From: an uncultured Solirubrobacterales bacterium
GTDB taxonomy: Bacteria; Actinomycetota; Thermoleophilia; Solirubrobacterales; JBBDJG01
Assembly: GCA_963785085.1 (NCBI GenBank)
Contig: CAWAUD010000014.1
Span: 125,464-189,463 of the forward strand
DNA: 64,000 nucleotides
Reading direction: 5' to 3'
The position numbers were made by a program, and so were the translations under genes. Each line of letters starts with the position of its first letter. The stretch's first letter is position 1. The notes under the pieces are model-generated. The model worked only from the letters and a program-made list of their open reading frames with translations. It was not told the DNA's origin and did not search any database. Positions 11,257 through 55,400 of the stretch are shown one piece after another.

Positions 11257-12324
<1,068 letters not shown>

Positions 12325-12444
12325 TCAGCCTTTGCAGGGAGTTCGAGCGCCGTCTGGCGCTGGCGACCCCCGCGCGTCAGGGTCGTCCGCAGCGGCACAT
12401 GGTACTCAACGGGGGCCTCCATGCCGGAGCACGGCTGCGGTGTT

Positions 12445-12476
12445 GCAGACAGCAGACGGCAGACGGCAGACGGCAG
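12445..12476. repeat. Heptamer tandem array (GCAGACG)x4.5 just downstream of maf
   Basis: gcagaca gcagacg gcagacg gcagacg gcag. Confidence 0.85.
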
Positions 12477-12480
12477 TGCG

Positions 12481-13035
12481 TCAGCCGGTCAGTATTTCGG
12501 GCGCCATCGACAGGAGGAGCGGCACGGGCAATCCGACGACATTCCAGTAGTCGCCGTCGATCTGCTCGACCAGAGCAGCTCCCCTTCCCTGGATCGCGTA
12601 GGCGCCCGCCCGGTCGCGCCATTCCTCCGTCTCCAGGTACCAGTCGAGGGGCCCCCCGCCGAGGTCGCGGAACGTCACGGCCGTGCGTGCCACGCCGGTC
12701 TGCTCGCGGCCACCCCCGATCAGGGCGACACCGCTGAACACCTCGTGCGTGCGGCCGGAAAGCCGCTGCAAATGGTCACGTGCGCGGCCCCAGTCCGCCG
12801 CCTTGCCGAACACCTCGCCGTCCAGGAAGACCTCGGTGTCGACCCCGAGGACGACGGAATCGGGCCGATCCGCCGCGACTCCGCGCGCCTTGCGCAGCGC
12901 GTTCTCGAGCACCACGTCCCGCGGGTCGCCCCGTCAACCTGCTCCTCGAACGTCAGCCGGCACCTGCTCGAACGGAATCCCGAGCATCTCGAGAATCGCC
13001 TTCCGCTGCGGAGAGCGTGAAGCGAGGACCAACAC
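12481..13035 (-). CDS. maf: Maf-family nucleoside triphosphate pyrophosphatase (frameshift near 12935)
   Basis: VLVLASRSPQRKAILEMLGI in the upstream frame; VLGVDTEV, LSGRTHEVFSG, DRAGAYAIQG, NVVGLP. Confidence 0.9.
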
Positions 13036-13070
13036 TCTGCGGTCTGCCGTCTGCGGTCTGCCGTCTGCCG
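13036..13070. repeat. Heptamer tandem array (TCTGC[C/G]G)x5 between ndk and maf; near reverse complement of the 12445-12476 array
   Basis: tctgcgg tctgccg tctgcgg tctgccg tctgccg. Confidence 0.85.
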
Positions 13071-13071
13071 G

Positions 13072-13476
13072 CTACAGCTCCGGAAAGAACAACCCCGCCT
13101 CGCGTGCCGCCGAATCCGCCGAATCCGACCCGTGCACCAGGTTGAACGTGACCTCGGTGGCGAAGTCGCCGCGGATCGAGCCCATCGCGGCCTCGAGCGG
13201 GTTCGTCGCGCCGATCACCTGGCGCGCCGCCTTCACCGCCTCCGTCCCCTCCAGGACCATCGCGACCAGCGGCCCGCGTGTGATGAAGTCGACCAGCTCG
13301 CCGAAGAACGGCTTCTCGGAATGCTCGGCGTAGTGGCGCTGGGCGAGGTCGCGATCGACCTGCATCAGCTTGAGGGCGGCGATCCGCAGCCCCTTTCGCT
13401 CGAAGCGGGCGATCACCTCACCGGTCAGCTGCCGCTCGAAGGCATCGGGCTTCACCAGGATCAGGGTTCGGTCCAT
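13072..13476 (-). CDS. ndk: Nucleoside diphosphate kinase
   Basis: [34 protein letters not shown]. Confidence 0.98.
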
Positions 13477-13512
13477 TAGTTGGTCTAACTCCTTCGGAGG
13501 ATGTGGGGCTGG

Positions 13513-14160
13513 CTAGAAGTTGTTCCGGCGCGAGCCCGCCGGGGGCTCGTCGGGCTCGTCGAGGAAGCTCGTCTCGGACTCCATCGTCGGCTCGTCGAGC
13601 ACGACCGGGCTGGGGCCGCCGGTCCGCTCGGCACGTTCAGCGGCGCGCTCGGCGGCCCGCTCCGGGGCGGTGGGCCGCCGGCGCCGGCTCGAGCGCGCGG
13701 GCGCCGGAGCAGAGCGGCTGACGATCTCGGCCTCGCAGAACGGGCACACCCGCCAGGCGGGATCGATCGGCTTGCCGCAGCTGCGGCACGGCTCCTTGAG
13801 CTTCTTCATGCAATGCGGGCAGCGCAGGAAGCTGGCCTCGATCTCGTGGCCACAGCTGTTGCAGATGCGGTTCTCGAGCATCTGGAGCCTGCCCTCCGCG
13901 GCCCGGATCTCGAGCTCACGCTCGTGGGCGTCTTCGAGGAACTCCGGCGGCCGCACGATCACGTAGACGATCGTCCCGATGAACGGGAACAGCGACGCGG
14001 CCGTCGCGCAGGCGATCAGCATCGGGTCTTCGACCCTGCGACTGGCGTCCGCGTAGGTCCAATAGACCAGCGCGAGCCAGATCACGAAGAGAAAGAAGAC
14101 CAGCAGGTTGACGACCAGGTTGAGGCCGTCGTTCTGGATGCCAAATAGGGCGAGCGTCAT
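13513..14160 (-). CDS. Membrane protein with double zinc-ribbon domain
   Basis: Two N-terminal TM helices (WTYADA..R, VIVRPPE) then CNSC/CPHC/CRSC/CPFC. Confidence 0.85.
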   Translation of the reverse strand: MTLALFGIQNDGLNLVVNLLVFFLFVIWLALVYWTYADASRRVEDPMLIACATAASLFPFIGTIVYVIVRPPEFLEDAHERELEIRAAEGRLQMLENRICNSCGHEIEASFLRCPHCMKKLKEPCRSCGKPIDPAWRVCPFCEAEIVSRSAPAPARSSRRRRPTAPERAAERAAERAERTGGPSPVVLDEPTMESETSFLDEPDEPPAGSRRNNF

Positions 14161-14271
14161 CGGATTCCTGTCCGCAGGGGAAGTCTAGGGCAGCAGGTGA
14201 CTCCATCATTCGCCACCGGGCCCGAACAGCCTGCCGCGAGAGCAATTCCACAACGCGCGCAATCACTCATC

Positions 14272-14376
14272 TCAGAGCAGTATCCGCCCCAGCACGTAGC
14301 CAACCGTGAAGAACAGCAGGATGACGGTCGCGACCACCAGCGCGACGAGGCCGAGCATCCGCAGGTGATCCGTCAT
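14272..14376 (-). CDS. 34-aa single-pass membrane micropeptide
   Basis: MTDHLRMLGLVALVVATVILLFFTVGYVLGRILL*; ATG overlaps the folC stop (ATGA); below ORF-track cutoff. Confidence 0.7.
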   Translation of the reverse strand: MTDHLRMLGLVALVVATVILLFFTVGYVLGRILL

Positions 14377-15697
14377 GCCCGTCTGTTCGAGCGCCGCTCG
14401 GCGCCCCCTTCACGGATCAGCTGCGACAGCAGGTACAGCGAGCCGGTGACCAGCACGGCGCCGTCCGGGCCGGCCTGGCGGATTGCTTGCGCGAGCGCCT
14501 CTGCGGGCTCGGGCACGATCTGCGCCGGCCCTCCTTCGAGCTGACTCCAGAGACTTGCGAGGGTTGCCGGAGGGAGTGCACCCTGCCGCGACGCGCGTGT
14601 GAAGATCGCACCCGACGTGACCGGCACGAGCGCCGCGAGGATCCCGGCTGCGTCCTTGTCGTCCATGATCGACACGACCGCGACCGGCCGGCGGCCGCCG
14701 GTTGCATCCAGAAGCGAGGCGCCGAGGGCCCGCGCGCCGCTCGGGTTGTGCGCTCCGTCGAGCATCACCAGCGGCCCTTGGGAGATCACCTCCATCCGGC
14801 CGGGCAGGACCAGGCCCGCGGCGGCGTTCCGCACCCTTTCGGCGTCCAGCGATCCACGCCCCATGCCGGCGAGCAGAGACTCGGCGGCGGCCACGGCGAG
14901 CGCGAAGTTCGCGCGCTGGAAGGTGCCCAGCGGCGCCAGCCGGATGTCGTCGAAGCGCCCTCCCGGCGTCTCGACCGTCAGAGCGTCGCCGTGGTCCCGG
15001 AGTTGCACCTCCACCCCCAGTCGCACGAGCGGCACCTGATGCTCGGCGGCGACCCGGCGGGCGACTTCTGCTGCCTCGTCGCCGAGCCTGCCCGTGACGA
15101 GCACCGATCCGGGTCGCACGACGGCGAGCTTCTCCTCGGCGATGTGGCGCTCGGTCGGTCCGAGCCAGCGCGTGTGCTCGAGGCCGACGTTGGTGAGCAC
15201 ATGCACGCTCGCCGCGATGACACTGGTGGCGTCGTAGCGGCCGCCAAGCCCGGCCTCGATCACCGCCGCCTCCACACCCGCGCGCGCGAGCTCCGAGTAG
15301 GCGGCGGCGGTGAGGGCCTCGAACTGGGTCACGCGGTCGCCTTCCTCGAGGGTGCGGTCGACCAGTGCCGCGGCCCGCGCGGCCGCGTCCGACGGCCGCC
15401 GCGAAGTCGGCATCGCTCACCTGGTCGGCCCTCCACCTCGACGCGCTCGGCGAAGGAGCGCAGGTGCGGCGAGAGGTAGGCGCCCGAGCGGACGCCGTGC
15501 GCCTGCAACAGAGCGGCGGTCATGCGCGCGGTCGAGGACTTGCCGTTGGTCCCGAGGACCTGCGCCGAGCGAAAGCTCTCCTGCGGGGAGCCGAGCGCGG
15601 TCATCAGGCGCCGCATCCGCTCCAGCCCGAAGCGCATGCCGAACATCTCCAGCGACAGCAGCCACTGCGCGGCCTGCTCCGGCGTGAAGGAGGTCAC
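14373..15697 (-). CDS. folC: Folylpolyglutamate synthase/dihydrofolate synthase (frameshift near 15418)
   Basis: GTNGKSS, YLSPHL, EAGLGGRYDAT, PGRME, LDGAHNP, VTGSLYL. Confidence 0.93.
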
Positions 15698-18367: not shown

Positions 18368-19184
18368 TCAGGCAGACGGCAGCTGCGCGCTCGCGAGCGG
18401 CAGACCGGGAACTTCCGCCCGCCCGCGTAGGAGGACACCGCCGCCTGCGACCCCCGTGACATAGAGGTCGCGCATGTCCTCGCCGCCGAAGCAGAGGCTG
18501 GTGACGAAGTCGGCGGGCGCCTCGATCATGCGGTCCAGGGCGCCATCGGCAGCGAACCGGGCGATCCCGCCCTCGCCGAGAGCGACGAGCACGCCGCCTC
18601 CCTGGTCCACGGCGAGTCCGTCGCACGAGCCCGCCGGGGCGGCCGCGAAGACGCGCCGCCCGGAGAGGCCTCCGTCGTCGCCGACGTCCCAGGCGAGCAC
18701 GTGCGAGTGCGCGTAGTCGCTCGCGTAGATCGTTGCGCCATCCGGCGAGAACCCGATGCCGTTGGGCCAGTCGATCTCGCGCGCCACCTCACGCGGCTCG
18801 GGCAGGTCGCCGCCGAGCGCCCACATTCCGCCCGGCACGGGATCCTCTCCCTTGAACGGATGGAAACGCAGCACGCCCGCGTACACACGCCCGCGCGAAT
18901 CGGTGCTGAAGTCGTTGAACCCCGTGGCGCCGTCGACCTCGAGGAGCGTGCGCGTCTCGCCGCCCTCGAGCAGCACGAGCTCCCGGCCCCCGACGACCAG
19001 CCCGCCGCCCTCGGCGACGGCCATCCCACCGATGCCGCGCCGGCGGTCGAGCAGCGTGTCCACGGTCCCGTCCGGCGACCACCGGTGGACTCCCCCGCCG
19101 AGCACGTCGCTGAACGCAACGCGAGCCGTCGGGCAGCACGACCGGCGCCTCGGGAAAGTTGAAGCCGGAAGCGAGGGTCTCCAC
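18368..19184 (-). CDS. SMP-30/gluconolactonase/LRE family protein (frameshift near 19118)
   Basis: METLASGFNFPEAP; FND..DSRGRVY; WPNGIGFSPDG; CDGLAVD; TSLCFGGEDMRDLYVT. Confidence 0.85.

Positions 19185-20791: not shown

Positions 20792-20796
<5 letters not shown>
20765..20796. repeat. 14-bp tandem duplication (taagagccggcgtc)x2 abutting the clpX stop
   Basis: taagagccggcgtc taagagccggcgtc taag. Confidence 0.85.
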
Positions 20797-22112
<1,316 letters not shown>

Positions 22113-22262
22113 CTAGCGCTCCTCCCAGATACGCCGCCTCTTACTCTAGGCGCTCGACGCGGTTCTGTCGCGTCCTTCAACGGGAAGGGCGCCGGACCCC
22201 TGCATGGATCGGCGAACGGCGAGTCGGACAGAACTGTCCAGCGGACGCCTGCCGAACAGCCC

Positions 22263-22846
22263 TCAGTGCTCGGAGATCACCCGATCGATGATGTTGTACT
22301 CCTGCGCCTCCTCGGCGCTCATGAAGTAGTCACGATCGGTGTCGCCGGAGACCTTCTCCAGGGGCTGCTTGGTGTGCTTGGCGATGATCTCGTCGAGCTT
22401 GCGGCGGATGTCGATGATCTCGCGCGCGTGGATCTCGATGTCGGCCGCCTGGCCGGAGAACCCGCCCGACACCTGGTGGATCAGGATCTTGGCGTTCGGC
22501 AGCGCCATGCGCTTGCCTTCCGCGCCGCCCGCCAGCAGGAGCGCGCCCATGCTCATCGCGACGCCGACGCAGATGGTCTGCACGTCGGGCTTGATGAACT
22601 GCATCGTGTCGTAGATCGCCAGGCCGGCGTAGACGCTTCCCCCGGCGAGTTGATGTAGAGGCTGATGTCCTTGTCGGGATCCTCCGACTCGAGGTGCAGC
22701 AGCTGCGCCACGACGAGGTTCGCGATGTCGTCGTTGATCGGTGTGCCCAGGAAGACGATGCGCTCGTTGAGCAGGCGCGAGTAGATGTCGAACGCGCGCT
22801 CGCCGCGCGAGGTCTGCTCCACGACCATTGGGACTAGAGGGCTCAT
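22263..22846 (-). CDS. clpP: ATP-dependent Clp protease proteolytic subunit (frameshift near 22640)
   Basis: [45 protein letters not shown]. Confidence 0.96.
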
Positions 22847-22965
22847 GTCACCTTTCCACGTCGGGTTCCGGGGGGTGCGGGAAGCCCTGAATACCGGCAA
22901 TCCCGCCGCCTGGCGGAGAATAGCAACGGCCTAATTGCGCCCCGGCGCGTAGATTCCTGCCCGGG

Positions 22966-24373
22966 CTAGCCGTCGGCCGGCTTCTCGGAGCCTGGAGTCC
23001 AGAGCTGCGCGGAACCCTCTTCCTCGCGCTGCTTGTCGGGCGTCCAGATGTCCTCGCGCGCCTTGGCCGTGTCCGCATCGATCGCCTGCGCGCTCTCGGT
23101 GAGCAGGTCGAGCGCCTTCCGCAGCCGCAGGTCGCGGCGCAGCGGGATGTCGCGGCCGTTGCGCTCGAGGCGTTCCAGCAGCTTCTGCGGCTTCGACTTC
23201 TCGCGCTCGGCCGCGCGGCCGAGCGCCTCCAGCAGCTCCTCGTCGGTGACCTCGATGCCCTCGGCGTCCGCGACGGCCTCCAGGACGCTCTCGCGTGCGA
23301 GCTGGCGCCCCGCGTCCTCGCGGGTCTCGTCGATCATCTCCTCGCGGGTCTTCCCGGTGGCCTCCAGGTAGGTGTCCGGGTCAAGGCCCTGGTGCTGGAG
23401 CGCGTGCGCCGTCCGGTCCCACATCTCCTCGGCGCGAGCGCTGACGAGGTCGTCGGGCAGGTCGACCTCGGCCTTGGCCACCGCCGCGTCGAGCACGGAT
23501 TCCCGGAACTCGTCCTCGATCGAATGCTCCTGCGCGTGGCGCAGCTTGTGCTCGATGTCGGCACGCAGCTCGTCGACGGTGTCGAAGTCACTCGCCTCGG
23601 CCGCGAAGTCGTCGTCGAGCGTCGGGCAGCTGCTTTTCCTGGACGTCCTTGACCTCGACCTCGAACTCTGCGTCTTTCCCCGCCAGGTCCTCGGCGCGGT
23701 AGTCCTCCGGGAAGGAGATGGCGACAGTGCGGGTCTCCCCCTTGCCGGCGCCCATCAGCTGCTCCTCGAAGCCTTCGACCAGCTGGCCGGAGCCGAGCTC
23801 CAGCATGTAGTCGCGCGCCGTGCCGCCCTCGAAGGGCTCGCCGTCGATGCGGCCGGTGAAGTCGACCACGGCGAGGTCGCCGGATGCCAGCGGGCGGTCG
23901 ACGCTCTCGACCCGGGCGAGCGGCTCGCGCAGGCGCTCGAGCTCCTGGTCGACGGCCTCGGCCGGGACCTCCGGCTCGCGCCGGCCAACCTCCAGGCCCT
24001 TGTAGTCGCCGAGCCTCGCCTTCGGAGTGACACCGACTTCGATCGTGAACCGGAGCGGCTCGTCGGTGCCGGGCATCTCGTCCATGTCGAGCTTCGGCTC
24101 GCCGATGGAGGACACGCCGGAGCGCATCAGCGCTTCCTCGTACCACTCGGGCAGGGAATCGCGCACGGCCTGCTCGAGCACGGCCTCGCGCCCCATGCGC
24201 TGGATCACCATCGGAGCCGGCACCTTCCCCTTGCGGAAGCCGGGGATGCGCAGCTCCTGGCCGATCTGCTGTGCGGCGCGTTGTACGCGCGACTCGACCT
24301 CCACGCCGGGCACCTCTGCGTCGAGGCGCACCCGGGAGTCCGAGAGCTCGGTGACCTTTGTGGTGACAGCCAT
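22966..24373 (-). CDS. tig: Trigger factor (frameshift near 23620)
   Basis: IPGFRKGKVP; FKBP-like VDFTGRIDGEPFEGG...FPEDY; upstream of clpP. Confidence 0.95.
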
Positions 24374-41928: not shown

Positions 41929-43320
41929 ATGAGTGCATCGGCTCCACTGCCGCCAGGACCGAGCATGCCGCCCGCGCTGCAGACGCTCGGCTGGTGGACG
42001 CGGCCGGTGGCGCTGCTGGAGGGATGCCGCGCCCGCTACGGCAAGCGGTTCACGCTGCGGTTCCTCGCCACCCCGCCGTTCGTCAACCTGGCGGACCCCG
42101 ATCAGGTGCGCGAGATGTTCACCGCCCCGCCTGAGGTCCTGCACCCCGGCGAGGGCGCGCGTGATGCTCGAACCGGTGATCGGCGCCAACTCGGTGATCC
42201 TGCTCGACGAGGGCGACCACCTCGAGCAGCGCAAGCTGATGCTCCCGGCGTTCCACGGCGAGAAGATGCAGCGTCTCTCCGGGACCATGGAGGAGGTCGC
42301 CGTGCGCGAGATCGAGAGCTGGCCCGACGGCGAGCCACTCGCCCTCCATCCCCGTTTCCAAGCGCTCACGCTCGAGGTGATCCTGCGGGCCGTTTTCGGG
42401 CTCGACTCAGGTGCCCGGCTCGACCGGCTGCGCGTGCTGCTTCACGCATCCTCGAGTTGGTGGAGGGCCCATGTCGCTGCTGCCATTCCTGCAGCGCGAG
42501 CTCGGCGGACGCGAGCCCGTGGGGGCGGCTCGTCCGCCTGAGGGCCGAAGCGGACGACCTCATCCACGACCTGATCGAGGAGCGCCGCGGCCGCGAATGA
42601 CATTGACCGGGACGACGTGCTCTCCATGCTGCTCGCGGGACGCCACGAGGACGGCTCCCCCATGTCCGATCAGGAGCTGCGCGACGAGCTCATGACCCTG
42701 CTGGTCGCCGGCCACGAGACGACCGCGTCGCAGCTCGCGCTGGCTGTTCGAGTGCCTGGCGCGCGAGCCGCGCGTCGTCGAGCGCCTGCGGGCCGAGGTC
42801 GCCGCCGGCGACGAGGACGCCTACCTGACGGCCACGATCCAGGAGGCCATGCGGCGCTATCCGGTGCTCCCGAACGCCGCTCCGCGCTTGGTGAAGGAGC
42901 CCGTCGAGATCGGGGGCTGGACCTACCAGCCGGGCGCCTGCCTGATCGCCAACGCGTATCTCATTCACCACGACCCCGACGATCTATCCCGAGCCGTACT
43001 CGTTCCAGCCCGAGCGCTTCGTCGAGAAGCCGCCTGGCACCTACACCTGGTTCCCGTTCGGCGGTGGGCGCAGGCGTTGCGTCGGAGCGAGCTTCGCGAT
43101 GCTCGAGATGAAGATCGTGCTGCGGGCTGCGATCGAGCGGACCGACATACGCGCCGGATACGACGGGCCCGTCTTCAGCAAGCGCCGGGGTATTACTCTC
43201 AGCCCGCGCAGTGGTGCTACTACCGTGCTTGTTCGCCTAAACACTTCTCAGCAGGAGGGCTTGAATGAATCTCTACGTGATCCTTCGCCGCAGCGGGTGG
43301 AAGTCGCCGCAGGACCTTGA
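41929..43320 (+). pseudogene. Second cytochrome P450, broken by about six frameshifts (pseudogene or local assembly errors)
   Basis: LPPGP, LMLPAFHGE, ELMTLLVAGHETT, EAMR, PFGGGRRRCVG spread over all three frames; 3' end uncertain. Confidence 0.7.
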
Positions 43321-43577: not shown

Positions 43578-45059
43578 CTACATGGACGGCTGAGCCTTCG
43601 GCGCACGGCGCGCGTTAGAGCCGTTGCGGCTCGCGCGCGTGGCAGGGCGCCGGGGCGCCGTCTCGGCCGCCAGCTGGTGCAGCTCTGCGATCGACTCCTC
43701 GACGTACTCGGCGAGGCGCTCGAGGTCCGGCATGGCGTCGTAGTCGCCGATCAGGTTGATGAAGACCGAGCCGTTGTAGCTCATGATCGCCACCGCCAGG
43801 GCGTTGCGCGGAGCCAGGAACGCGACCGGCCGCAGCTGCAGCAGCTCGCGGCCCAGCAGGTAGATCGGGAACTGCGGGCCCGGGACGTTCGTGACCAGCA
43901 GGTTGTAGAAGCGGTTTGAGAAGTTGAGCCGCGACGCCTGCGCCAGGATCGTGGGCGGCGCGAAGTCCTGCAGATTGGCGATCATCTCCGCGCCCTGGGC
44001 CTGCTTGGACTCCTTGAGGCCGGCCATCGACTCCCGCACGATCCGGTAGCGCTCCCGCGGCGAGTTCGCGTACACCGGCAGCGGTCCCATCATCATCGTG
44101 ATCCGGTTGCCGAGCGCGGCCTCCTCGCCCTTCGGGCGGATCGAGACGGGGACGCAGCCCCGTAGCTGCAGGCCCTCGGTCCGGATGCCGCGCGAGTGGA
44201 GCCACTTCTGAAGCGCGCTCGCGACGACCGTCAGGAACACGTCGTTGACGGTGCCGCCGAGGCCGTCCTTGATCTCCTTCAACTCCGACAGCGACGTCTC
44301 GACCCACAGCACGCGGCGATGGGTGCCGATGTCGCCGTTCAGCGGCGTCTTGGGCGCCGGGTTGACCATCGACCACATGACCTCGCCCATTCCCTCAGCC
44401 GCCTCGCGGACCGAATCCAGCGTCGTGGCGGGGTGCGCGACCATCGAGACGGCCTTGCGCGCGAGGCCGAACGGCAGCTTGACCAGGCCCTTGACGCCGT
44501 CGGCGATCAGCTCGCGATCCGAGGGCTCCTGGTGGGGCCGCCACGAGTCGCCTGCCGGCAGGTCCGGCGTCCCCGCGGGCCCCGTGTCGAACATGACGGT
44601 CGTGAGGTCGACGCCCGAGACACCGTCGACCAGCGAGTGGTGGACCTTCGAGATGACCGCGAAGCGATTGTCCTCGAGTCCCTCGACGAGCCAGATCTCC
44701 CACAACGGCTTGGAGCGGTCGAGGCGCTGCGAGAAGATCCGGCCGACGAGCTGGCGGAGCTCGTGCTCGGACCCGGGCGACGGCAGCGCCGAGTGGCGCA
44801 CGTGGTAGCCCAGGTTGAAGGAGGGATCGTCGATCCACATCGGGCGCCCCATCTCCAGCCGCGGATGGGCCAGCTTCTGCCGGTACCGGGGCACCATGTG
44901 CAGGCGGGAGGAGACGTGCTCCTCGAACTCCTCGCGCGCGGGCGGCGGCCCTTCGAACACCAGCACTCCGCCGATGTGCATGTGCGTGCCCGCCTCGCGA
45001 ACCAAAAATGAGGCATCGACCGCCGACAAGCGGTCCTTGTGCTTCGGCGTGCCCGCCAT
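43578..45059 (-). CDS. Wax ester synthase/diacylglycerol acyltransferase
   Basis: LSAVDASFL, RLDRSKPLWE, HHSLVDG, TVNDV, TNVPGP. Confidence 0.95.
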   Translation of the reverse strand: MAGTPKHKDRLSAVDASFLVREAGTHMHIGGVLVFEGPPPAREEFEEHVSSRLHMVPRYRQKLAHPRLEMGRPMWIDDPSFNLGYHVRHSALPSPGSEHELRQLVGRIFSQRLDRSKPLWEIWLVEGLEDNRFAVISKVHHSLVDGVSGVDLTTVMFDTGPAGTPDLPAGDSWRPHQEPSDRELIADGVKGLVKLPFGLARKAVSMVAHPATTLDSVREAAEGMGEVMWSMVNPAPKTPLNGDIGTHRRVLWVETSLSELKEIKDGLGGTVNDVFLTVVASALQKWLHSRGIRTEGLQLRGCVPVSIRPKGEEAALGNRITMMMGPLPVYANSPRERYRIVRESMAGLKESKQAQGAEMIANLQDFAPPTILAQASRLNFSNRFYNLLVTNVPGPQFPIYLLGRELLQLRPVAFLAPRNALAVAIMSYNGSVFINLIGDYDAMPDLERLAEYVEESIAELHQLAAETAPRRPATRASRNGSNARRAPKAQPSM

Positions 45060-45200
45060 GTTCGTCCCCTTCCTTCGGGTTTGCCGACAGCGAGCGTACC
45101 TGAGCGGCGGACGGTCGTCAGAAAAGTGAACGCCGTCGTGCCGTTGGGCGGGCCGGCGCTTCGAGCCGCGAGCGCCGGCCTATCGTGGGTGCTGCGCGAG

Positions 45201-45767
45201 TTAGCTCTTTCCGCCCGAGCTCGGCTCCCACTTCGCCCCGGAGGGCGCGAGGGTGTACCACTCGGCGCCGAACTGATCGAGGCCCTGTCCCTTCGTCTGC
45301 CCCGCCTTCGTGTCGCCGGCGTAGTAGTAGAGCGGGTGTCCCGCGTACACCACCTGCTGCTTGCCGTCCGAGCGCTTGCTCGTCGTGAGCTTGGCCGCCG
45401 TGACGCCCGAGCCGGCCTTCGGGCTCCCGGAGGTCGTCAGCGGAGGCCAGGCGGCGGCGCACCCGCCGGAGCACATGCTCGTCGGGGTCTTGTCCTTCTC
45501 GAACAGGTAGAGCGTGCGCCCGTCCGTGCCGACGATGACCGTCCCGATGCTCGTCTTGGCGGCCGACACGGTTGCGGTGCCGCTGCTGTTGCTGGCCGTG
45601 GTGGTCCCACCGTAGGCGCCGCCGTAGCCACCTCCGGAGGTCTGCGCGTTGCTCGAGGTGGTGCCCGAGCTGCTGGAGTCGTTGTTGCTGCTGCCGCAGC
45701 CCGCGACAATCACAGCGACCAGCGCCACCCCCAACGCCATCGCGATCCATTTCACAGAGCTCTTCAT
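45201..45767 (-). CDS. Secreted-repeat lipoprotein (COG4315/Lipoprotein_15-like)
   Basis: Lipobox VAGC; GRTLYLF..D; C...CAAAWPP; GHPLYYY.GD; W. Confidence 0.88.
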   Translation of the reverse strand: MKSSVKWIAMALGVALVAVIVAGCGSSNNDSSSSGTTSSNAQTSGGGYGGAYGGTTTASNSSGTATVSAAKTSIGTVIVGTDGRTLYLFEKDKTPTSMCSGGCAAAWPPLTTSGSPKAGSGVTAAKLTTSKRSDGKQQVVYAGHPLYYYAGDTKAGQTKGQGLDQFGAEWYTLAPSGAKWEPSSGGKS

Positions 45768-45809
45768 GGATGTTCCCTTCTGATCGGTACGGCTGCCCTT
45801 GACGCCACT

Positions 45810-45870
45810 GACACGGACCAGGCCGTGCCGCGGTTCAATCGTTGAACCGAATCGACCCCGGCGACGTGTT
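45810..45870. promoter_or_regulatory. Back-to-back ECF (SigL-type) promoters TGAACC-N16-CGTGT
   Basis: Minus: TGAACC(45837-32)-16-CGTGTC(45815-10); plus: TGAACC(45843-48)-16-CGTGTT(45865-70). Confidence 0.75.
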
Positions 45871-45880
45871 AGGGGCAGTG

Positions 45881-46411
45881 ATGACTGACGAGCCGCTCGA
45901 CGCGGCGCAAGAGGAGGAACGACGAGTGCGGGCTCTCTACGCAGAGCACGGGCAGGTGCTGCAGGGTTACGTGACCCGGCTGACCCGCGACCCGCAGCGA
46001 GCCGAGGACATAGTCCAGGAGACGCTCGTTCGCGCCTGGCGGCGGGGCGAATCGCTGAGTGGCGATCCCCGATCCCTGCGGCCGTGGCTGTTCACCGTCG
46101 CGCGCAACCTGGCGTTTGACGATCACCGCGCCCGGGCGAGGACCGAACTGGTCGCCCCCGAAGCGTTCACGGACGAGGCCGACACGGCAGCTGCGCTCGA
46201 TCGCACCCTGGAGACTTGGCAGATCACCGAGGCACTGGCCCATCTGTCGCGGGATCACCGCGAGGCGATCGCGGAGACCTTCTTCCGCGGGCATTCGGTC
46301 GCGGAGGCCGCGACTGCGCTCGGCGTGCCGCCGGGCACGATCAAATCGCGTACCTACTACGGGCTGCGTGCGCTGCGGTCCGCGCTGGAGGAGCAGGGAT
46401 GGGGCGGTTGA
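45881..46411 (+). CDS. ECF sigma factor, SigL-like
   Basis: LYAEHG, AEDIVQETLVRAWR, WLFTVARN, GTIKSRTYYGLRALR. Confidence 0.92.
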   Translation: MTDEPLDAAQEEERRVRALYAEHGQVLQGYVTRLTRDPQRAEDIVQETLVRAWRRGESLSGDPRSLRPWLFTVARNLAFDDHRARARTELVAPEAFTDEADTAAALDRTLETWQITEALAHLSRDHREAIAETFFRGHSVAEAATALGVPPGTIKSRTYYGLRALRSALEEQGWGG

Positions 46412-47022
46412 GCGCCGGCTGCGACTCGCTCGAGCGCCTGTCGCTTGGCGCCTACGTGCTGGGCGCACTCGACCCGGTGGAGCGTGCCCGATTCGAGCAG
46501 CACCTCGAGTCCTGCTCCGCATGCCGGGAGGAGCTGGTCCAGATGGCAGGACTGCCCGGCCTCCTGTCGCGCGTGAGTCTCGAGGACGCCCTCGATCCGC
46601 CGTCCGTTGCTCCATCGCCCGCACGCCGGCGCCGCTTCGCCGCCATCGGCAGCGTGGCCGCGGTGGCCGCCGTGGCGGCGGCGCTCATCCTCGCGCTGGT
46701 GACGGGCGGCAACTCCGACTCGCCGAACCGGCCCCAGACCGTCGCGGCGACGAACCAGCGGACCGGCGTGTCGGCGAAGATGGCGCTGCGCCCCGCGCCC
46801 TGGGGCACGGAGGTGAAGGTGCGGCTCGCCGGCGTCACCGCCGGGACTCGCTGTCGCCTCGTGGCCGTCGGGCGGGACGGTTCCCGCGAGATCGCCGGCA
46901 CCTGGCGCGCGGACTACGAAGGACGGGCTGACGTCCGGGCCGCCACCGCGATCCCGGTGAGCGATGTGGCATACCTCGACGTGGTGGCCGGCGGGCAGCG
47001 CCTCGTGCGCGCCACGCTCTAG
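46408..47022 (+). CDS. Zinc-binding (ZAS/zf-HC2) transmembrane anti-sigma factor, RslA-like
   Basis: LGAYVLGALD..FEQHLESCSAC, TM helix, PWGT; TTG overlaps sigma stop. Confidence 0.88.
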   Translation: MSAGCDSLERLSLGAYVLGALDPVERARFEQHLESCSACREELVQMAGLPGLLSRVSLEDALDPPSVAPSPARRRRFAAIGSVAAVAAVAAALILALVTGGNSDSPNRPQTVAATNQRTGVSAKMALRPAPWGTEVKVRLAGVTAGTRCRLVAVGRDGSREIAGTWRADYEGRADVRAATAIPVSDVAYLDVVAGGQRLVRATL

Positions 47023-47035
47023 CCCACCGCGCCGG

Positions 47036-47347
47036 CTACTTCATCAGGTACTCCATCGCCTCGACCGGGTCCGAGAAGAGCATCAGCGCGTCGTCGGTGG
47101 CGACAAGCCGGCCGAAGTGAGTCGACATCTCGTGCTGGAGCGAATACGAATCCAGCTCGAAGCCGAGCTCCTGGCTGACCTGGTCGAGGTCGATCACGAG
47201 CCGGTCCTTGGCACGGATCTCCCAGAAGGACGGCTGCTCGATGATCTCGATTCCCTCCTGGGCGCCCATCACCGCCGCGACCGCGTCGCCCTCCTCGCTC
47301 TTGGCCATCACGATTCCGACGTAGTCGTAGGTCTTCTCGCCGCTCAT
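47036..47347 (-). CDS. Soluble di-iron monooxygenase coupling/effector protein (MmoB/DmpM family)
   Basis: VGIVM..SEEG..VA, LQHEMSTHFGRLV..DD..LFSDP; last gene of the cluster. Confidence 0.88.
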   Translation of the reverse strand: MSGEKTYDYVGIVMAKSEEGDAVAAVMGAQEGIEIIEQPSFWEIRAKDRLVIDLDQVSQELGFELDSYSLQHEMSTHFGRLVATDDALMLFSDPVEAMEYLMK

Positions 47348-48423
47348 GCCGCGCCTCCGCCGCCGGCGCCGTTTCCGTCAGCCCGCACTCGCGCGAGCAG
47401 CTCGTCGACGTCGATCTGAACGTTCGCGCGGGCATCGTCGAAGGAGATCCCGGCCGGCAGCTGGTCGAACACCGGCTTGAGGCCGAGCGCCGCCTCCTCG
47501 GCGAGCGGCATCCAATCGGCAAGCCAGCCGTCCAGCACCACGCGGTTGGCCTCGCCATGCTCCTCGTCAGCGAGCACGAAGCCCATCAGCTCGGCGGTCC
47601 AGTTGCGGACCCACTCCCACTCGAGCTGCGCGACGTGGCTCACCGCTTGAGTGATGATGTCGCCGTTGAAGCGCACCGAGCGCATCAGCAGCTCCCGCCT
47701 GGTCATCAGGCCAAACGTGGTCTCGAAGCACATGTTGGCGGCGAAGACACGCTCTCCCCAGTCGGGCGTCGCCCGCAGCTTCTCGACGTAGCGGCGAGCG
47801 GGCTGCCACGGCTCGTCGTTTAGCCAGCTCTGTTTTGCCCGGTCCACCGGGAAGTCGCCGAACTGCTCCTCCAGGTCCATCCCGTACAGGACGTAGGCCT
47901 GGGCCTGGCGCTGCTTCATCGCCGCCTCCAACGCGACGGCGTGCGTGATCGTGTCCGACAGCGTGTCGCGCGCGGCGCTCGCCAAGGCGAGCCAGATCCC
48001 GTGCTCGGCGAATGCCGGCACCTGCAGGTTCGCGCGCAGGAACTCCACCCATTCGGGCGAGAAGTCATCGAACGCGCGCTCGCGCTTGGCGGTGCGCACG
48101 GCGCCCTCGATCAGCTGCTCGTATGCGGCGCCGGTCTGGTAGTAGGGCCGCTCCCACATCTGGCCCGGGTCGCGGAACGCGTACCAGTCGACCGACTTGA
48201 GCGCGGTCGAATCGTCCCACCACATGCCGCGGCCGTCCTCGAAGTGCACGGGCCATTCACGATCCACATGGCGGTGCACGGACGGCTGCGAGTCGACCGT
48301 GACGTCCTCGTAGACCGTTGCGCGGCGCTTCTTCGGCGTGTACCAGAGGAACGAGCGCTCGGGCTCGTCCCCGCGCCGGCCGGCGCCGTCGCCGACCTTC
48401 TTCACGGGTGGTGTGGCTGACAT
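47344..48423 (-). CDS. Soluble di-iron monooxygenase hydroxylase beta subunit
   Basis: PKKRRATVYEDVTVDSQP, STALKSVDWYAFRDP..WERPY, DWGE. Confidence 0.9.
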   Translation of the reverse strand: MSATPPVKKVGDGAGRRGDEPERSFLWYTPKKRRATVYEDVTVDSQPSVHRHVDREWPVHFEDGRGMWWDDSTALKSVDWYAFRDPGQMWERPYYQTGAAYEQLIEGAVRTAKRERAFDDFSPEWVEFLRANLQVPAFAEHGIWLALASAARDTLSDTITHAVALEAAMKQRQAQAYVLYGMDLEEQFGDFPVDRAKQSWLNDEPWQPARRYVEKLRATPDWGERVFAANMCFETTFGLMTRRELLMRSVRFNGDIITQAVSHVAQLEWEWVRNWTAELMGFVLADEEHGEANRVVLDGWLADWMPLAEEAALGLKPVFDQLPAGISFDDARANVQIDVDELLARVRADGNGAGGGGAA

Positions 48424-48435
48424 TCCGATGCCTCC

Positions 48436-49443
48436 CTAAGCAGCAGCCGACTCCGCGTCGGCACTCGTCGTGAACTTGTCATGGAAGATGCGTCTCTCGT
48501 CGATGCCGTGCTGCTCGGTCGCCAGCTCGGCCATCGCGTCGATCATCGGGGGCGGGCCGCACATGTAGAGCTCGGGGTCCTCCATGCCGGCCAGGCACTC
48601 GCCGGCGGTCTCGTGGACGAAGCCGCCCACCACCGGCGTGAACTCGAAGTCCGCGAGCGACGCGCCCAGCTGCTCGACGACGTCGACGTAGTACAGGTCC
48701 TCGTCGCTGCGCGCGCCGTAGAAGAAGCGCACCGGGCGCGTGCTGCCCTCGCCCGCGAGGCGGCGCAGCAGCGACAGGATCGGCGCCATGCCCGAACCGC
48801 CGGCGACCATCAGGATCGGCCGCGGGTTCTCGCGCAGGTGGAAGGCCCCGTAGGGCCCGGTGAAGCCGAGCGTGTCGCCCGGGTTGATCTCGCCGTCGAG
48901 CATCGAGGAGAAGCGCCCGCCGGGGTAGCGCTTGACGATCAGCTCTATGCGGCCGTCGCCGGGCAGGTTCGCCATCGAGAACGAGCGCCGCGCCTCGTCG
49001 CCGCCGGGCACCCAGATGTCGACGTACTGGCCGGGCAGGAACGAGAAGTCCTCCGGCTCGTCGACCTTCAGCTCCAGGCGGCGGATGTCATGCGTCAGCG
49101 CCTCGACGGCGGTCACCGTCGCGGACCCGTCGCGGATCGCGTTCTCGAGCCGGTAGTTGTCCGGGTCGAAGTGCAGCAGCTCGACGACCAGGTCCTCCTC
49201 CGGCATCGCGCGGCACAGCAGCGTGTAGCCGTTCGTCTCCTCCGACTCCGACAGCGCGAACGTCGAGTAGGGCTTCAGCACCACCTCGCCCTCGAGCAGG
49301 TAGGCCTTGCAGGCGGAGCACTGCCCCTCTCTGCACCCGTAGACGAGGTTGAAGCCGTGCCGGAAGGCGGCGTCGAGGACCGACTCCTCCTCGTCGCAGT
49401 CGATCTCCTCGCCGATCGGCTCGAAGAGGACCCGCGGGCTCAT
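48436..49443 (-). CDS. Soluble di-iron monooxygenase reductase (2Fe-2S + FAD/NAD)
   Basis: CREGQCSACK, LLC, RSFSMAN, GGSGMAP, CGPPPM. Confidence 0.93.
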   Translation of the reverse strand: MSPRVLFEPIGEEIDCDEEESVLDAAFRHGFNLVYGCREGQCSACKAYLLEGEVVLKPYSTFALSESEETNGYTLLCRAMPEEDLVVELLHFDPDNYRLENAIRDGSATVTAVEALTHDIRRLELKVDEPEDFSFLPGQYVDIWVPGGDEARRSFSMANLPGDGRIELIVKRYPGGRFSSMLDGEINPGDTLGFTGPYGAFHLRENPRPILMVAGGSGMAPILSLLRRLAGEGSTRPVRFFYGARSDEDLYYVDVVEQLGASLADFEFTPVVGGFVHETAGECLAGMEDPELYMCGPPPMIDAMAELATEQHGIDERRIFHDKFTTSADAESAAA

Positions 49444-49464
49444 GGGCTGCTGCTCCCTGCTGCG

Positions 49465-51133
49465 CTAGCCGGCCGTCCCCACGCTCGCCGGCGCGGCGTG
49501 GCCGTTCGACTTGCTCCAGGGCGCGGCCGCCTGCAGCCCGCCGTCGATGTGGCCGTTGGGAGTGACGAGGCCCACGGAGGAGCCGTTCGGCAGCCCGAGC
49601 TTCTCGGCCGTGACGATGTTCGGGCTCTGGATGTGGAAGTCCATGCTCTTCGAGGTCCGTGAGCGTCCACATACGGTCGCCGTTCACGTGCGGCTGCGGC
49701 ACGAGCGTCTCGCCGTCGGAGCGCACGTACCCGAGGTGGCGGACCAGCTCCGAGATCTCCCAGCCGTGGTAGCGGTCGAAGTAGTTGCGGTCGCCGACGT
49801 AACGGCCGGGGTTCGACTCGTCGAGCCACTGGCATTCCTTCGAGCAGTAGAAGCGCGTGTGGCCATCGACCGCCCGGTGGCACATGTCCTCCTCGAAGAC
49901 GCAGCCCATCAGGCAGACCCAGCACGACGGCGACGCCTGGTCGTTCGCCATCTGCATCAGGTGCTTGAACTGCTGCGGGTCGTGGCGGGTGGCGCGGAAG
50001 GTCTCCCACACCGCCCCGTAATCGGCGTACCAGCCGGGATAGTGGTCCTCGAACCACTCGAAGTCGCGCTCGTCGAGCCCGTCCATGCGCCAGAAGTTGA
50101 GCATCCAGAAGGCGCTCGATCCGAGCATGTTGCGGTGCACCATGCCGCGCTTCAGCCGGTCGCGCGCGCGGTCGAACAGCGACGAGTCGAAGTTCAGCCC
50201 CAGCTTGCCGAGCTTGAGGACGTACGAGCGGTACCAGTCGTCCTCGATCCACCGCTCCCACTTGTCCATGTAGCTCTCGGTGTCGCTGCGGTCATCGGAG
50301 CCGTACTCCATGATCCCCGAGCCGAAGCCGTCCAGGTAGGCGTGGTTGATCCACCACGCCTGCCCGAGGTCACGCTCGATCAGCGGCGCGTTGTCGTCCT
50401 CCTGGAGGACGGTCAGAAGCGTGGCGTAGCCGTTGGAGATGTGACGCGCCTCGTCCGACTGCACGGACAGGTACGTGGTCGGCAGCGTGAAGTCGCCGTT
50501 GCGCGCGCCGACGTCGGGCAGCGCCACGAAGGCGATGTTGGTGAACGCCGTCTCGGCGACGACCTGGAGGGTGAAGGCGCACTGGACCGGGTCGCCGACG
50601 ATGAAGTGAGACAACATGTTGAGCGCCTGGCGAGTCCCGACGTTGTTCGCGAGCGCCTTCGGACCGAGGTGCCAGCCGGCGGGGTCGGGAGTGTTCTTCG
50701 CGTACCAGCGCGCGAGCGACATCTGCATCCCGGTGTGGCGGATCTCGTCGACGAACTGCACGTGGTAGCCGTTGCGCAGCTCGTTGTTGGGGATCGCGTC
50801 GATCAGCATCGACATGCAACGCCCGGCGCCGACCTCGGCGTACGCGGTCGCGACGATGTAGGGCTTGATGATCTCGAGCCACTTCGGACCGGCCTTGCTC
50901 GTCATGTCGGCCCGGACCGCGGCGTCGTGCCCGCCGTACACGCGCTCGTCCTTCTCGAGCTCCATCGGAAGGTATTCCCGCATGATGTGCTTCATCGGGT
51001 CCTTCGCCTTGTCCGGGAACTTGTACCGGGACGGATACTTGTTCGCGGGCTCGAAGTAGGTCGGCTCCCATCCAAGCTGGGAGATGCGCTCGTGAGTCTT
51101 GGTGATGCTGCGGCGACGGGTCGTAGTGCTCAA
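49465..51133 (-). CDS. Soluble di-iron monooxygenase hydroxylase alpha subunit (one frameshift near 49650)
   Basis: DEIRH and DEARH di-iron motifs, AETAFTN, FYCSKEC; true C-terminus FHIQSPNIV...AG* in the adjacent frame; GGAGG before TTG 51133. Confidence 0.92.
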
Positions 51134-51172
51134 GGCGATGTCCTCCCTCGCGGAGTGGCGGTCCGAGACGCG

Positions 51173-51203
51173 AAGATATACCCTTACTGACGTGGAGTCA
51201 ATA
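51173..51203 (-). promoter_or_regulatory. Monooxygenase operon promoter (TTGACT-17-TATCTT) overlapped by palindrome TAcTGAC-N5-GTCAaTA
   Basis: Palindrome 51185-51203 covers the -35 and sits between the divergent alpha-subunit and TetR starts. Confidence 0.65.
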
Positions 51204-51216
51204 CCATCTGACGGAC

Positions 51217-51846
51217 ATGAGCACACCCACCACTGAGAACATCCCCAAACGCCGCCGCCGATCCCCCGAGTCGGCCGAGCGCGAGATCCTCGCGGCGGCC
51301 GAATCCTTCCTGCGCGAGCGCCCGTTCCACGAGATGACCGTGGACGAGGTGATGGCCGGCACGACGCTCTCGCGGCCGTCCTTCTACGTCTACTTCCCCG
51401 ACCGCAATCACCTGGTGATCCGCCTCGTCGACGAGGTCGGCGCCGAGGTGTTCGCGATGGCCGAGCGCTGGCTGACGGGCACCGGTGATCCGCGCTTGGA
51501 GGTGCGCGCGGCGCTCGAGGGAGTTGCCGCCGTGTGGTCCGAGCACGGGCTGCTCCTCGGCGCGATGGCGGACGCCGGCAAGCACGACGACGAGGTGGAC
51601 ACCGCCTATCGCACGCTGCTCGGCCGGTTCATCGACGCGACCGCTGAGCACATCGAGGACGACATCAAGGCGGGCCTGATCGAGCCGCTCGACCCGCGCG
51701 AGACCGCCCGCGCGCTGATCCTCATGACGGAGCGCTACCTCAACGCGACCTTCGGGCACGATCCGGTGGCCCCCATCGAGACGGCCGTCGACACACTCTG
51801 GACGCTGTGGGTGCGCGCGCTGTACGGCCCGCCCGCACAGCCCTAA
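51217..51846 (+). CDS. TetR/AcrR family regulator (EthR-like C-terminus)
   Basis: EREILAAAESFL..MTVDEVMAGTTLSRPSFYVYFPDR; LWVRALYG. Confidence 0.9.
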   Translation: MSTPTTENIPKRRRRSPESAEREILAAAESFLRERPFHEMTVDEVMAGTTLSRPSFYVYFPDRNHLVIRLVDEVGAEVFAMAERWLTGTGDPRLEVRAALEGVAAVWSEHGLLLGAMADAGKHDDEVDTAYRTLLGRFIDATAEHIEDDIKAGLIEPLDPRETARALILMTERYLNATFGHDPVAPIETAVDTLWTLWVRALYGPPAQP

Positions 51847-51859
51847 AGGGGGCGTTCGG

Positions 51860-52498
51860 GTGCAGGAGGTGCTGCGGGACGTCGTTCACTGGTCGGCCAC
51901 GCACCCGACGCTCGGAATCGAGGTCTCCTCTTACTGGCTGGACGCGGACGGCATCGCGATCGACCCGCTGCTGCCGCCCGAGGTCATGGACTGGCTCCGC
52001 GAGCGGCCGGTCAAAGCCACGGACGTACTGCTCTCGAATCGTCATCACTACCGGGACAGCGGCGTATTGGTCGAGGAGTTCGACGCCATCGTCCACTGCA
52101 ACGCGGCCGGCCTGCACGAGTTCGACGAGGAGCAACACGTAAAGGGATTCGAGCCCGGCCACATGCTGCCGGGAGGCGTGATTGCGTTCGAGATCGACGC
52201 CATCTCTCCGGACGACACCGCCCTCGTGCTTCCCGGGGTCCGGGCGGTGGTGCTGGCGGATGCGGTGATCCGCATGGAGGGCAGGAAGGAAGGCGGCCCG
52301 TTGCGGTTCGTGTCCGACGGCCTGATGGACGACCCGGAACGTGACAAGGCGGCGATCGTCGCCGCCCTGAAGCGGCTCCTGGAAGATGTCGACTTCGAGC
52401 ACCTGCTGCTGGCCCACGGCGGCCCGCTGATCGGTGACGGCCGCGAGCAGCTTCAGCGGTTCGTCAGCAGCGGCGGAGCTTCGGGCTCAGGCGCCTGA
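51860..52498 (+). CDS. Metallo-beta-lactamase-fold protein
   Basis: IDP, LSNRHHYRD, LADA, LLLAHG. Confidence 0.75.
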   Translation: MQEVLRDVVHWSATHPTLGIEVSSYWLDADGIAIDPLLPPEVMDWLRERPVKATDVLLSNRHHYRDSGVLVEEFDAIVHCNAAGLHEFDEEQHVKGFEPGHMLPGGVIAFEIDAISPDDTALVLPGVRAVVLADAVIRMEGRKEGGPLRFVSDGLMDDPERDKAAIVAALKRLLEDVDFEHLLLAHGGPLIGDGREQLQRFVSSGGASGSGA

Positions 52499-54608: not shown

Positions 54609-55400
54609 CTACGGAACGAAGACCCCCTCTTCCAGGAAGCGGTCGTCGTTGTCGGAGCCCTGGCCGGGATCGCCATCTGGGCCGCCGTCATTCACATGGG
54701 GGTCCAGTGTCGCGATGTTCATCCGCGTCAGCGCGTTGATGCCGAACGGCGGTCCGCCGGTAACGGCGTTGAACGACGTCATCAGGTTGCAGTCGGATCC
54801 GACTCCCGGGGCCGGCGGCACGCACGGCACGACGATCTTGAACGGGAAGTCGAGCACCGTCGCCGAGATTGCGTTGCCACCGCCAGGCCCGGAGGGCACC
54901 GGGCAGCTCGGCGGCACGGCGATGTTCGGCAGGTTGCAGTGATCGGTGATCCGCAGGTCGTAGACGACCGCGACACGGCCGGTGTACTCGTTCAGCGAAC
55001 CCGATGGGCAAAGCGCCGGATTGGCGCCCGCCAGCGCGGCCGTGCAGCGGATGTCGCTCAGCCTGATATCCGCTTTGATGTCGGCCGGCGCCGCCGTGAC
55101 GGTCAGCCTCGACGAGCCGACGAAGTTCGCCGGCTTGCCGTTGCTGTCCGCCGTGCCGACCGTGAGCCATCTCGAGGCGGGGGTCGGCGGAGCGCAGGAG
55201 CCGAACGAGAAAGCCGGCCCATGGTTGGCGTTCGTGGCGGTGCATTGCTTGTACGCGATCACGAACGACGTGTACAGCGGCGTCGCGGCCTTCGGGCGGA
55301 CGTGAGTGCCCGCGGCGGTGCTGCTCAGAACGAGCGAGCCGGCGACCACAGTGACGGCCACCAGCGGGACGCAGAACCGCAGGCGAGAGAAACGGAGCAT
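54609..55400 (-). CDS. Secreted protein consisting only of the unnamed FVP domain
   Basis: Signal peptide MLRFSRLRFCVPLVAVTVVAGSLVLSSTAAG, then HVRPKAATPL...FLEEGVFVP; RBS aaggagg. Confidence 0.85.
   Translation of the reverse strand: MLRFSRLRFCVPLVAVTVVAGSLVLSSTAAGTHVRPKAATPLYTSFVIAYKQCTATNANHGPAFSFGSCAPPTPASRWLTVGTADSNGKPANFVGSSRLTVTAAPADIKADIRLSDIRCTAALAGANPALCPSGSLNEYTGRVAVVYDLRITDHCNLPNIAVPPSCPVPSGPGGGNAISATVLDFPFKIVVPCVPPAPGVGSDCNLMTSFNAVTGGPPFGINALTRMNIATLDPHVNDGGPDGDPGQGSDNDDRFLEEGVFVP

Follow-up and report, generated by a model that had tools for sequence, protein, structure and literature searches.

The stretch of 64,000 nucleotides analyzed here, hereafter the window, lies on contig C14 of a metagenome-assembled genome (MAG) of an uncultured Solirubrobacterales bacterium, which comprises 2.17 Mb in 20 contigs, is 52% complete, and has a G+C content of about 69%. 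Between positions 47036 and 51846 it carries a four-component soluble di-iron monooxygenase (SDIMO) operon, with all four subunit families and their cofactor motifs present, and a divergently transcribed regulatory gene of the TetR family. Taking sequence comparison, phylogeny and gene context together, we hold it very likely that this operon belongs to group 5 of the SDIMOs, in the branch related to the tetrahydrofuran (THF) monooxygenase Thm that corresponds to subgroup A of a recent review (Yang, Kertesz and Coleman 2025, PMC11825192), that its host is a soil bacterium, that it is under TetR control, and that the frame break in its alpha gene is artefactual. The elements of the locus are the following:

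51133-49465, minus strand: alpha subunit (hydroxylase), PF02332 at E 3.7e-48, 555 amino acids if the extra base is ignored
48436-49443, minus strand: reductase (NADH oxidoreductase), 335 amino acids, Pfam domains Fer2, FAD_binding_6 and NAD_binding_1
47344-48423, minus strand: beta subunit (hydroxylase), 359 amino acids, PF02332 at E 2.4e-43
47036-47347, minus strand: coupling (effector) protein, 103 amino acids, PF02406 at E 4e-19
51217-51846, plus strand: TetR-family regulator of EthR type, 209 amino acids, PF00440 (TetR_N) and PF21313 (EthR_C)
51185-51203, unstranded: putative TetR operator, the 19-base palindrome TATTGAC-N5-GTCAGTA, overlapping the -35 box
51173-51201, minus strand: promoter-like site of the operon, TTGACT, 17 nucleotides, TATCTT, sigma-70-like
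49651..49652, minus strand: frame break, one extra base, its placement ambiguous between the two positions
51860-52498, plus strand: small open reading frame (ORF) of 212 amino acids, 13 nucleotides after the TetR gene, a doubtful member of the system

The four SDIMO genes run head to tail on the minus strand in the order alpha, reductase, beta and coupling protein, with gaps of 21 and 12 nucleotides followed by a four-nucleotide ATGA overlap between the beta and coupling genes. The alpha gene begins with a TTG at 51133, seven bases downstream of GGGAGGA and at the same start residue as in its relatives, and ends with the TAG at 49467-49465; a spacer of 83 bases separates it from the divergent TetR gene. 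With MmoX of PDB entry 1fyz the alpha subunit aligns at E 9.7e-78, a similarity that fixes its predicted fold, and all six iron ligands are kept (E100, E130, H133, E194, E228 and H231), aligning with E114, E144, H147, E209, E243 and H246 of MmoX in a numbering mapped by hand from the alpha-MmoX alignment. Both DE(I/A)RH motifs are intact and are accompanied by two further glutamates; as judged from its sequence, the protein has the two E...(D/E)ExxH motifs, with four glutamates and two histidines, by which SDIMOs are recognized. Encoded together with it are a predicted beta subunit, a coupling protein of the MmoB/DmpM family and a putative [2Fe-2S]-FAD-NAD reductase, the last with a C-X4-C-X2-C...C motif for a plant-type [2Fe-2S] cluster and the motifs RSFS (RxFS) and GGSGMAP (GGxGxxP). 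An earlier sequence-only reading of this locus had described just such tightly spaced alpha, reductase, beta and coupling genes with both DExRH motifs intact, and the Pfam assignments, the intergenic distances and the six ligands now bear it out. By analogy with the family, electrons from NADH would travel through the FAD and [2Fe-2S] cofactors of the reductase to the hydroxylase formed by alpha and beta, whose di-iron centre is carboxylate-bridged; the small coupling protein would act as a gate for the reaction, and a small hydrophobic substrate would receive one oxygen atom.

The gene order is that of group 5, which the review characterizes by the succession alpha, reductase, beta, coupling and by an identity cut-off of 40%, and divides into subgroups A to C (PMC11825192). 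The sequence-only reading had called it the prmABCD-type order of this group, rightly so, for the same arrangement is found in the loci of plasmid pYYL1.1, Caballeronia and Methylocella, whereas the loci of group 6 have a different one (alpha, beta, coupling, reductase). In pairwise comparisons, the window alpha shares 52.7% identity with ThmA of Rhodococcus ruber YYL pYYL1.1, 41-43.5% with PrmA-type proteins (R. aetherivorans BW2, Rhodococcus JS3073, Caballeronia, Methylocella), 40% with EtnC of Nocardioides JS614, 38-39% with group 6 proteins (PH-06, NBB4, ELW1) and 34% with a group 3 type (Rhodococcus ZPP). The other subunits rank the references as alpha does: identity to the pYYL1.1 ThmADBC proteins is 54.9% for the reductase, 43.8% for beta and 46.0% for the coupling protein, and to a PrmA-type cluster 44%, 36% and 37%, respectively, beside 43% for alpha. 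Two IQ-TREE trees were rooted on TmoA and XamoA, one computed quickly from 46 rows and one carefully from 29; for the break, an X was put into the window alpha. In the careful tree, group 5 is monophyletic (support 98/97, a starred value), and the window alpha is placed in an extensive clade next to ThmA, made up of sequences from uncultured Solirubrobacterales; ThmA and this MAG clade group with support 93/91, in agreement with the quick tree, and the MAG clade containing the window alpha excludes ThmA with support 92/93. With at least 40% alpha identity to members and a monophyletic group around it, the enzyme belongs to group 5 by these measures. Its attribution to subgroup A follows from the ThmA anchor shared with the review, whose own sequences stand outside our alignment.

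How new is this subclade? The sequence-only reading had suggested a distinct subclade in a lineage not well known for these enzymes. Distinct it is, in the sense that the alpha subunit lies outside the characterized clades; new it is not, for subgroup A has been described as consisting mostly of Actinomycetota MAG sequences together with ThmADBC (Yang, Kertesz and Coleman 2025, PMC11825192), and the subclade, though real, is therefore already recognized in print. Nor is the lineage as little known as was supposed: the group 5 entries of Table S3 in the same review include Conexibacter sp. W3-3-2, Solirubrobacterales sp. and Patulibacter medicamentivorans (PMC11825192), prm-like operons in Thermoleophilia MAGs were reported in papers of 2021 and 2026 (PMC7901476, PMC13603553), and 12 of 17 genomes of the window's own family have the window-type gene.

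The active-site pocket was compared at ten non-ligand positions lining the MmoX cavity, mapped by hand and read from a MAFFT alignment; residues are given in the same order throughout:

MmoX positions compared: L110, G113, F188, F192, L204, G208, T213, L216, I217, F236
Window and close kin: T, A, L, F, L, A, T, A, F, Y
ThmA: V, A, T, F, L, V, T, I, L, M
PrmA-type: I, P, G/A, F, L, A, T, L, F, F

The window alpha thus differs from ThmA at six of the ten positions and from the PrmA type at five. A phylogenetic placement and a pocket comparison had both been put forward as checks in the sequence-only reading, and their joint outcome is that alpha is not nested at high identity within the PrmA or ThmA clade and that its pocket is set apart from both. 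The PrmA string given in that reading for the first iron ligand, IIPFPEISAA, is indeed present in four PrmA-type sequences, against ATAYAEVGAG in the window.

These comparisons bear upon the functional equivalence of the operon with named systems. The source databases label many of its relatives "propane (2-)monooxygenase large subunit", and on such automatic annotation the operon would encode a propane-2-monooxygenase or acetone monooxygenase equivalent to PrmABCD/MimABCD of subgroup B, with which it shares group, gene order and subunit set. Ketones have been proposed as the usual substrates of many group 5 enzymes (PMC11825192), and the genes neighbouring the operon in its relatives would suit the handling of a hydroxyketone or alcohol product. 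Automatic protein names are not tests, however, and the characters expected of an orthologue, namely a score above the equivalog cut-off and a linked chaperonin of MimG type, do not appear in the predicted proteins. Our PrmA-type references are the clusters of R. aetherivorans BW2, Rhodococcus sp. JS3073, Caballeronia zhejiangensis and Methylocella tundrae plasmids, which we take, by the make-up of the clusters rather than by direct comparison, to stand for the enzymes of TY-5, RHA1 and mc2-155. Identity to them is low and their first-ligand signature is absent from the window alpha. Scores stay below the NCBIfam equivalog cut-offs (MimD, 83.7 versus 150 bits for the coupling protein; MmoC, 238 versus 500; MmoY, 123 versus 700), and the NCBIfam search of an intact alpha homologue, P0001, matched no family. 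Among PrmA-type loci, those of R. aetherivorans BW2 and Caballeronia have genes for an amidohydrolase, an Fe-S-assembly-like protein, an alcohol dehydrogenase and GroEL, and that of Methylocella has a sigma-54 activator; loci of groups 3 and 6 carry GroEL. No gene for GroEL, an amidohydrolase, an alcohol dehydrogenase or a sigma-54 activator lies within about 8 kb on either side of the window operon, as the sequence-only reading had noticed for the adjacent genes; two ORFs in that interval (45039-45845 and 54609-55400) have no Pfam match. This pattern extends to the relatives. A set with a single genome for each species contains 166 stretches that encode a relative of alpha, and the best 80 of these, nearly all from Solirubrobacterales MAGs and 68-94% identical, are referred to here as related loci; GroEL-like, amidohydrolase and Fe-S-assembly-like genes are found within 8 kb in none of the 80. 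Equivalence with PrmABCD/MimABCD consequently appears to us a serious but rather unlikely explanation.

Could the operon be instead a functional orthologue of ThmADBC/DxmADBC, a THF/1,4-dioxane monooxygenase that opens cyclic ethers by alpha-hydroxylation? The plasmid-borne cluster of R. ruber YYL (pYYL1.1, NZ_CP024892.1) has the same gene order, encodes the closest characterized relative of all four window subunits and represents the nearest characterized branch in both trees. It has no adjacent chaperonin, as is the case for the window operon and the related loci, and in 10 of the 80 related loci the operon is linked to an aldehyde dehydrogenase that shares 40-45% identity with the one adjoining thmA. 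Yet an orthologue would be expected to nest with ThmA and to keep its pocket, and the predicted alpha does neither: ThmA, at little more than half identity, is left outside the window's clade. The surroundings differ too. The thm cluster has the aldehyde dehydrogenase just upstream, a GntR gene nearby and no divergent TetR, and lies among insertion sequence (IS) elements, whereas the window operon has no adjoining aldehyde dehydrogenase, is preceded by a divergent TetR and sits in a context that looks chromosomal. The clade is, moreover, widespread in the genomes of ordinary soil bacteria, for which THF and dioxane are presumably not natural substrates. Orthology in function with Thm is hence improbable in our judgement, and placement in the Thm-related branch of group 5, outside both characterized clades, describes the operon better.

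The alpha reading frame runs to about position 49652 and resumes one base out of register, as the sequence-only reading had seen in a frameshift near 49650. It is highly likely, from the comparisons that follow, that this break is an assembly indel and not the mark of a pseudogene. The codon-position G+C plot retains the coding signal on both sides. The protein P0001, which comes from another data set, has 555 residues, is 99% identical to alpha and reads straight through the break site, the reading after the break differing from it in two residues only. Contigs from four of the 20 public runs that contain part of the window stretch (X1, X2, X3 and X20) were aligned on 49300-50000; those of X1 do not span 49651, and those of X2, X3 and X20, 90-99% alike, each lack one base at 49651 or 49652. 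A search by tblastn with the proteins of the related MAG locus L013 revealed further frame changes at window positions 20795-24373 on the minus strand, four of them in clpX and one each in tig and clpP. Not all of these changes can be real, the three being housekeeping genes needed in a living cell. The count refers to these three genes, to which a cytochrome P450 lead may be added, a window-wide scan of third-codon-position G+C being too crude. The alpha gene is likewise split in 5 of the 80 related loci. That the gene is truly frameshifted in the source strain and the operon a recent pseudogene, as the extra base in the assembly as given and the location of the break outside any homopolymer run might suggest, is very improbable in the light of the six breaks in essential genes, the signal kept in both halves, the near-identity with P0001, the relatives' contigs without the base and the intact reductase, beta and coupling genes. 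Since the break is most likely an assembly indel, the alpha gene is probably intact in nature. A programmed frameshift at 49651 was also considered and is excluded, the relatives simply being without the base. On the plus strand at 42617-43268, two overlapping ORFs in different frames match consecutive parts of a cytochrome P450 model, and this is probably another gene broken by an indel. The assembly being rich in single-base indels, other apparent pseudogenes in it need careful reading.

The second part of our interpretation concerns the regulator. The divergent gene seen in the sequence-only reading encodes a protein with an N-terminal helix-turn-helix and an EthR_C ligand domain, both above cut-off (PF00440, 32.8 bits; PF21313, 61.1 bits), which by sequence is a TetR-family regulator of EthR type. 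The promoter-like site at 51173-51201, in the spacer between the TetR and alpha genes, is the only one in 46900-51400, where 0.3 would be expected. Over its -35 box and promoter spacer lies the palindrome 51185-51203, which was found by pattern search; its arms being too short for the seed of a repeat finder, it escaped that program. Both strands match, with 0 and 1 mismatch, where shuffling would lead one to expect 0.02 matches. Of the 80 related loci, 13 have a TetR homologue that is divergent in the same place, and in an alignment of the 13 spacers the core ATTGAC...GTCA is invariant, the -10 box follows TAnnnT and TTGAC is kept. Every one of the 13 loci whose TetR gene is divergent has TTGAC-N5-GTCA within 300 nucleotides upstream of alpha; the 66 loci that lack a TetR homologue have no copy there. 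The remaining locus with a TetR match, L068, has a 31% identical homologue elsewhere, flanked by two palindromes of the TTGAC-N5-GTCA form (10280-10294 and 10998-11012). Another copy of the palindrome is found at position 12162 of L011, before a PD40-repeat gene just after the operon. It is most probable, on the grounds of this conservation, that the EthR-like TetR represses the operon through the conserved operator, and the TetR control that had seemed apparent from the sequence is thereby supported. The repressor would occlude the -35 box by sitting on the 19-base palindrome and so block the operon promoter, which a ligand would free again by releasing it.

The best solved relative of the window TetR is EthR of Mycobacterium tuberculosis (E 2.2e-20 over residues 7-205), with which it has the EthR_C domain in common. 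There, too, the gene of a TetR-family repressor is divergent from that of a monooxygenase, EthA, although EthA is a flavin Baeyer-Villiger monooxygenase and the window enzyme a di-iron one; EthR also covers a much longer operator region than the 19-base palindrome of the window. Regulators of the TetR family have been reported from AlkB and CYP153 systems, and up-regulated TetR genes from CB1190, whereas the regulators given for SDIMO clusters in the accessible parts of the literature are of AcoR/NtrC, CdaR/PucR or LuxR type. A TetR with its operator at an SDIMO promoter was not encountered in the literature that could be covered, subscription journals being incompletely represented in it, and the available portions of the review do not discuss the regulators or neighbours of the subgroup A MAG sequences (PMC11825192). 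Modest new points are the putative 19-base operator and the fact that helper genes are consistently lacking.

Beyond the operon itself, the neighbourhood is variable. Downstream and convergent to it lie an ECF sigma gene (45842-46411) and an anti-sigma gene (46216-47022, zf-HC2), both on the plus strand, a pair that ends 13 nucleotides from the stop of the coupling gene and has no homologue in the 80 related loci. On the upstream side, the TetR gene is followed by the small ORF and by LtrA, cupin and glyoxalase-family genes. The 212-residue ORF is possibly cotranscribed with the TetR gene; it has no Pfam or NCBIfam match, is kept in one of the 80 related loci (L011) and has an Atlas lead to small Actinomycetota clusters of the MBL fold (Lactamase_B_5), 10-15% of whose members have Lactamase_B families. 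A tblastn search of the assembly detected a single GroEL/Cpn60 on contig C7, a pair of alcohol and aldehyde dehydrogenases on C4 and a lactonase at window 18380-19120; amidohydrolase, Fe-S-assembly-like and GMC queries gave nothing at E 1e-10, and no convincing sigma-54 activator was seen, in an assembly that represents 52% of the genome.

Among the related loci, the later genes of the operon are retained in the same order in 78, 76 and 70 of the 80, the remainder being cut short or broken. Behind the coupling gene, the clade with 83% identity has genes for a GMC oxidoreductase (in 10 loci) and for an aldehyde dehydrogenase (in 8 loci); such genes are found in L012-L019, L025, L026 and L035, at about 12050-15600 in each, and some of these loci then have an SMP-30-type lactonase. 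About 40 loci of a clade with 70% identity (L020-L090, for example L021 6717-16616) have a divergent PucR-type regulator instead of TetR, and their downstream genes encode PDH-like E1 alpha (33 loci), E1 beta (26), E2 (17) and a lipoate ligase (9); an MFS transporter and an SCP2 protein are also carried downstream. Regulators have hence been swapped within one enzyme clade. Just upstream of the operon, L020 and L068 each carry genes for an alcohol and an aldehyde dehydrogenase. To judge from their families, these neighbours fit the onward oxidation of an alcohol or hydroxyketone product, and say no more than that. In L013 (2483-16300), the TetR, SDIMO, GMC oxidoreductase and aldehyde dehydrogenase genes form a block between clpX/AbiEi and a lactonase gene; in the window, the lactonase (18380-19120, minus strand) is found some 1.7 kb past clpX, and the SDIMO block at a distance of 28 kb. 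It would seem that the block was inserted or relocated as a unit.

A search of a large protein collection for relatives of alpha gave 352 matches among 5553 candidates, of which 120 were listed; among the matches listed, the closest belong to uncultured Solirubrobacterales, Thermoleophilaceae, Baekduia, Paraconexibacter algicola (66% identity) and Conexibacter sp. (63%), so that cultured relatives do exist. All 72 records of annotated plasmids with an alpha match are less than 60% identical. Of 401 sampled genomes of Solirubrobacterales, 45 match at E 1e-50 or better and 33, a count that includes the unpublished genome G259, have an alpha of the window type; the other 12 hold only an alpha of 43-46% identity, belonging to another type of group 5 (G193, G250, G301, G112, G058, G391, G220, G305, G104, G179, G230 and G134). 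Both alpha types are present in genomes G002 and G008. The contigs of the compared public runs derive from soil and rhizosphere.

What might such an enzyme oxidize? From the gene context of the relatives and the soil habitat we infer, by pure inference, an order of candidates: a small natural ketone (acetone, 2-butanone) comes first, itself at less than probable, followed at some distance by a short alkane, by a THF-type ether a little further down and, last, by other compounds. Several facts pull against this ranking and against the interpretation of the locus as a whole. The ranking is weak because the relatives' GMC, aldehyde dehydrogenase and E1/E2 genes are absent beside the window operon and in L011, its 94% relative, and because none of the relatives' neighbour proteins reaches an NCBIfam equivalog cut-off or indicates a specific substrate. 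The helper genes missing around the operon may sit in the missing half of the genome. ThmA stands on a long branch (0.77) and its pairing with the MAG clade remains below the threshold for a star, so that this pairing is not firm. The contigs of X2, X3 and X20 are those of relatives from other samples, neither the source strain nor the source reads. ATTGAC-N5-GTCA occurs once in the 2.17-Mb assembly, where we estimate about 0.85 occurrences by chance, and the genome-wide count adds nothing to the case for the operator; binding of the repressor is read from co-occurrence and position only.

The substrates of SDIMOs known from genomes and MAGs only are singled out as the main gap in knowledge in the 2025 review (PMC11825192), and the present locus offers a clean and compact example from the MAG-dominated branch beside ThmA, with four genes and no helper genes nearby, in which a repressor with a recognizable operator could serve for the screening of inducers. 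We advance tentatively, as a doubtful proposal, that the EthR-like repressor and its operator constitute a switch that responds to a small molecule and is dedicated to the chaperonin-independent SDIMO that is the main one in soil Solirubrobacterales, an enzyme that would oxidize an abundant natural volatile such as acetone, a related ketone or a short alkane, and not a pollutant. If this were true, an abundant uncultured lineage of soil bacteria would gain a role in the turnover of volatile carbon, and a compact, easily expressed operon with its sensor would become available for a branch of SDIMOs that has no tested member apart from Thm.

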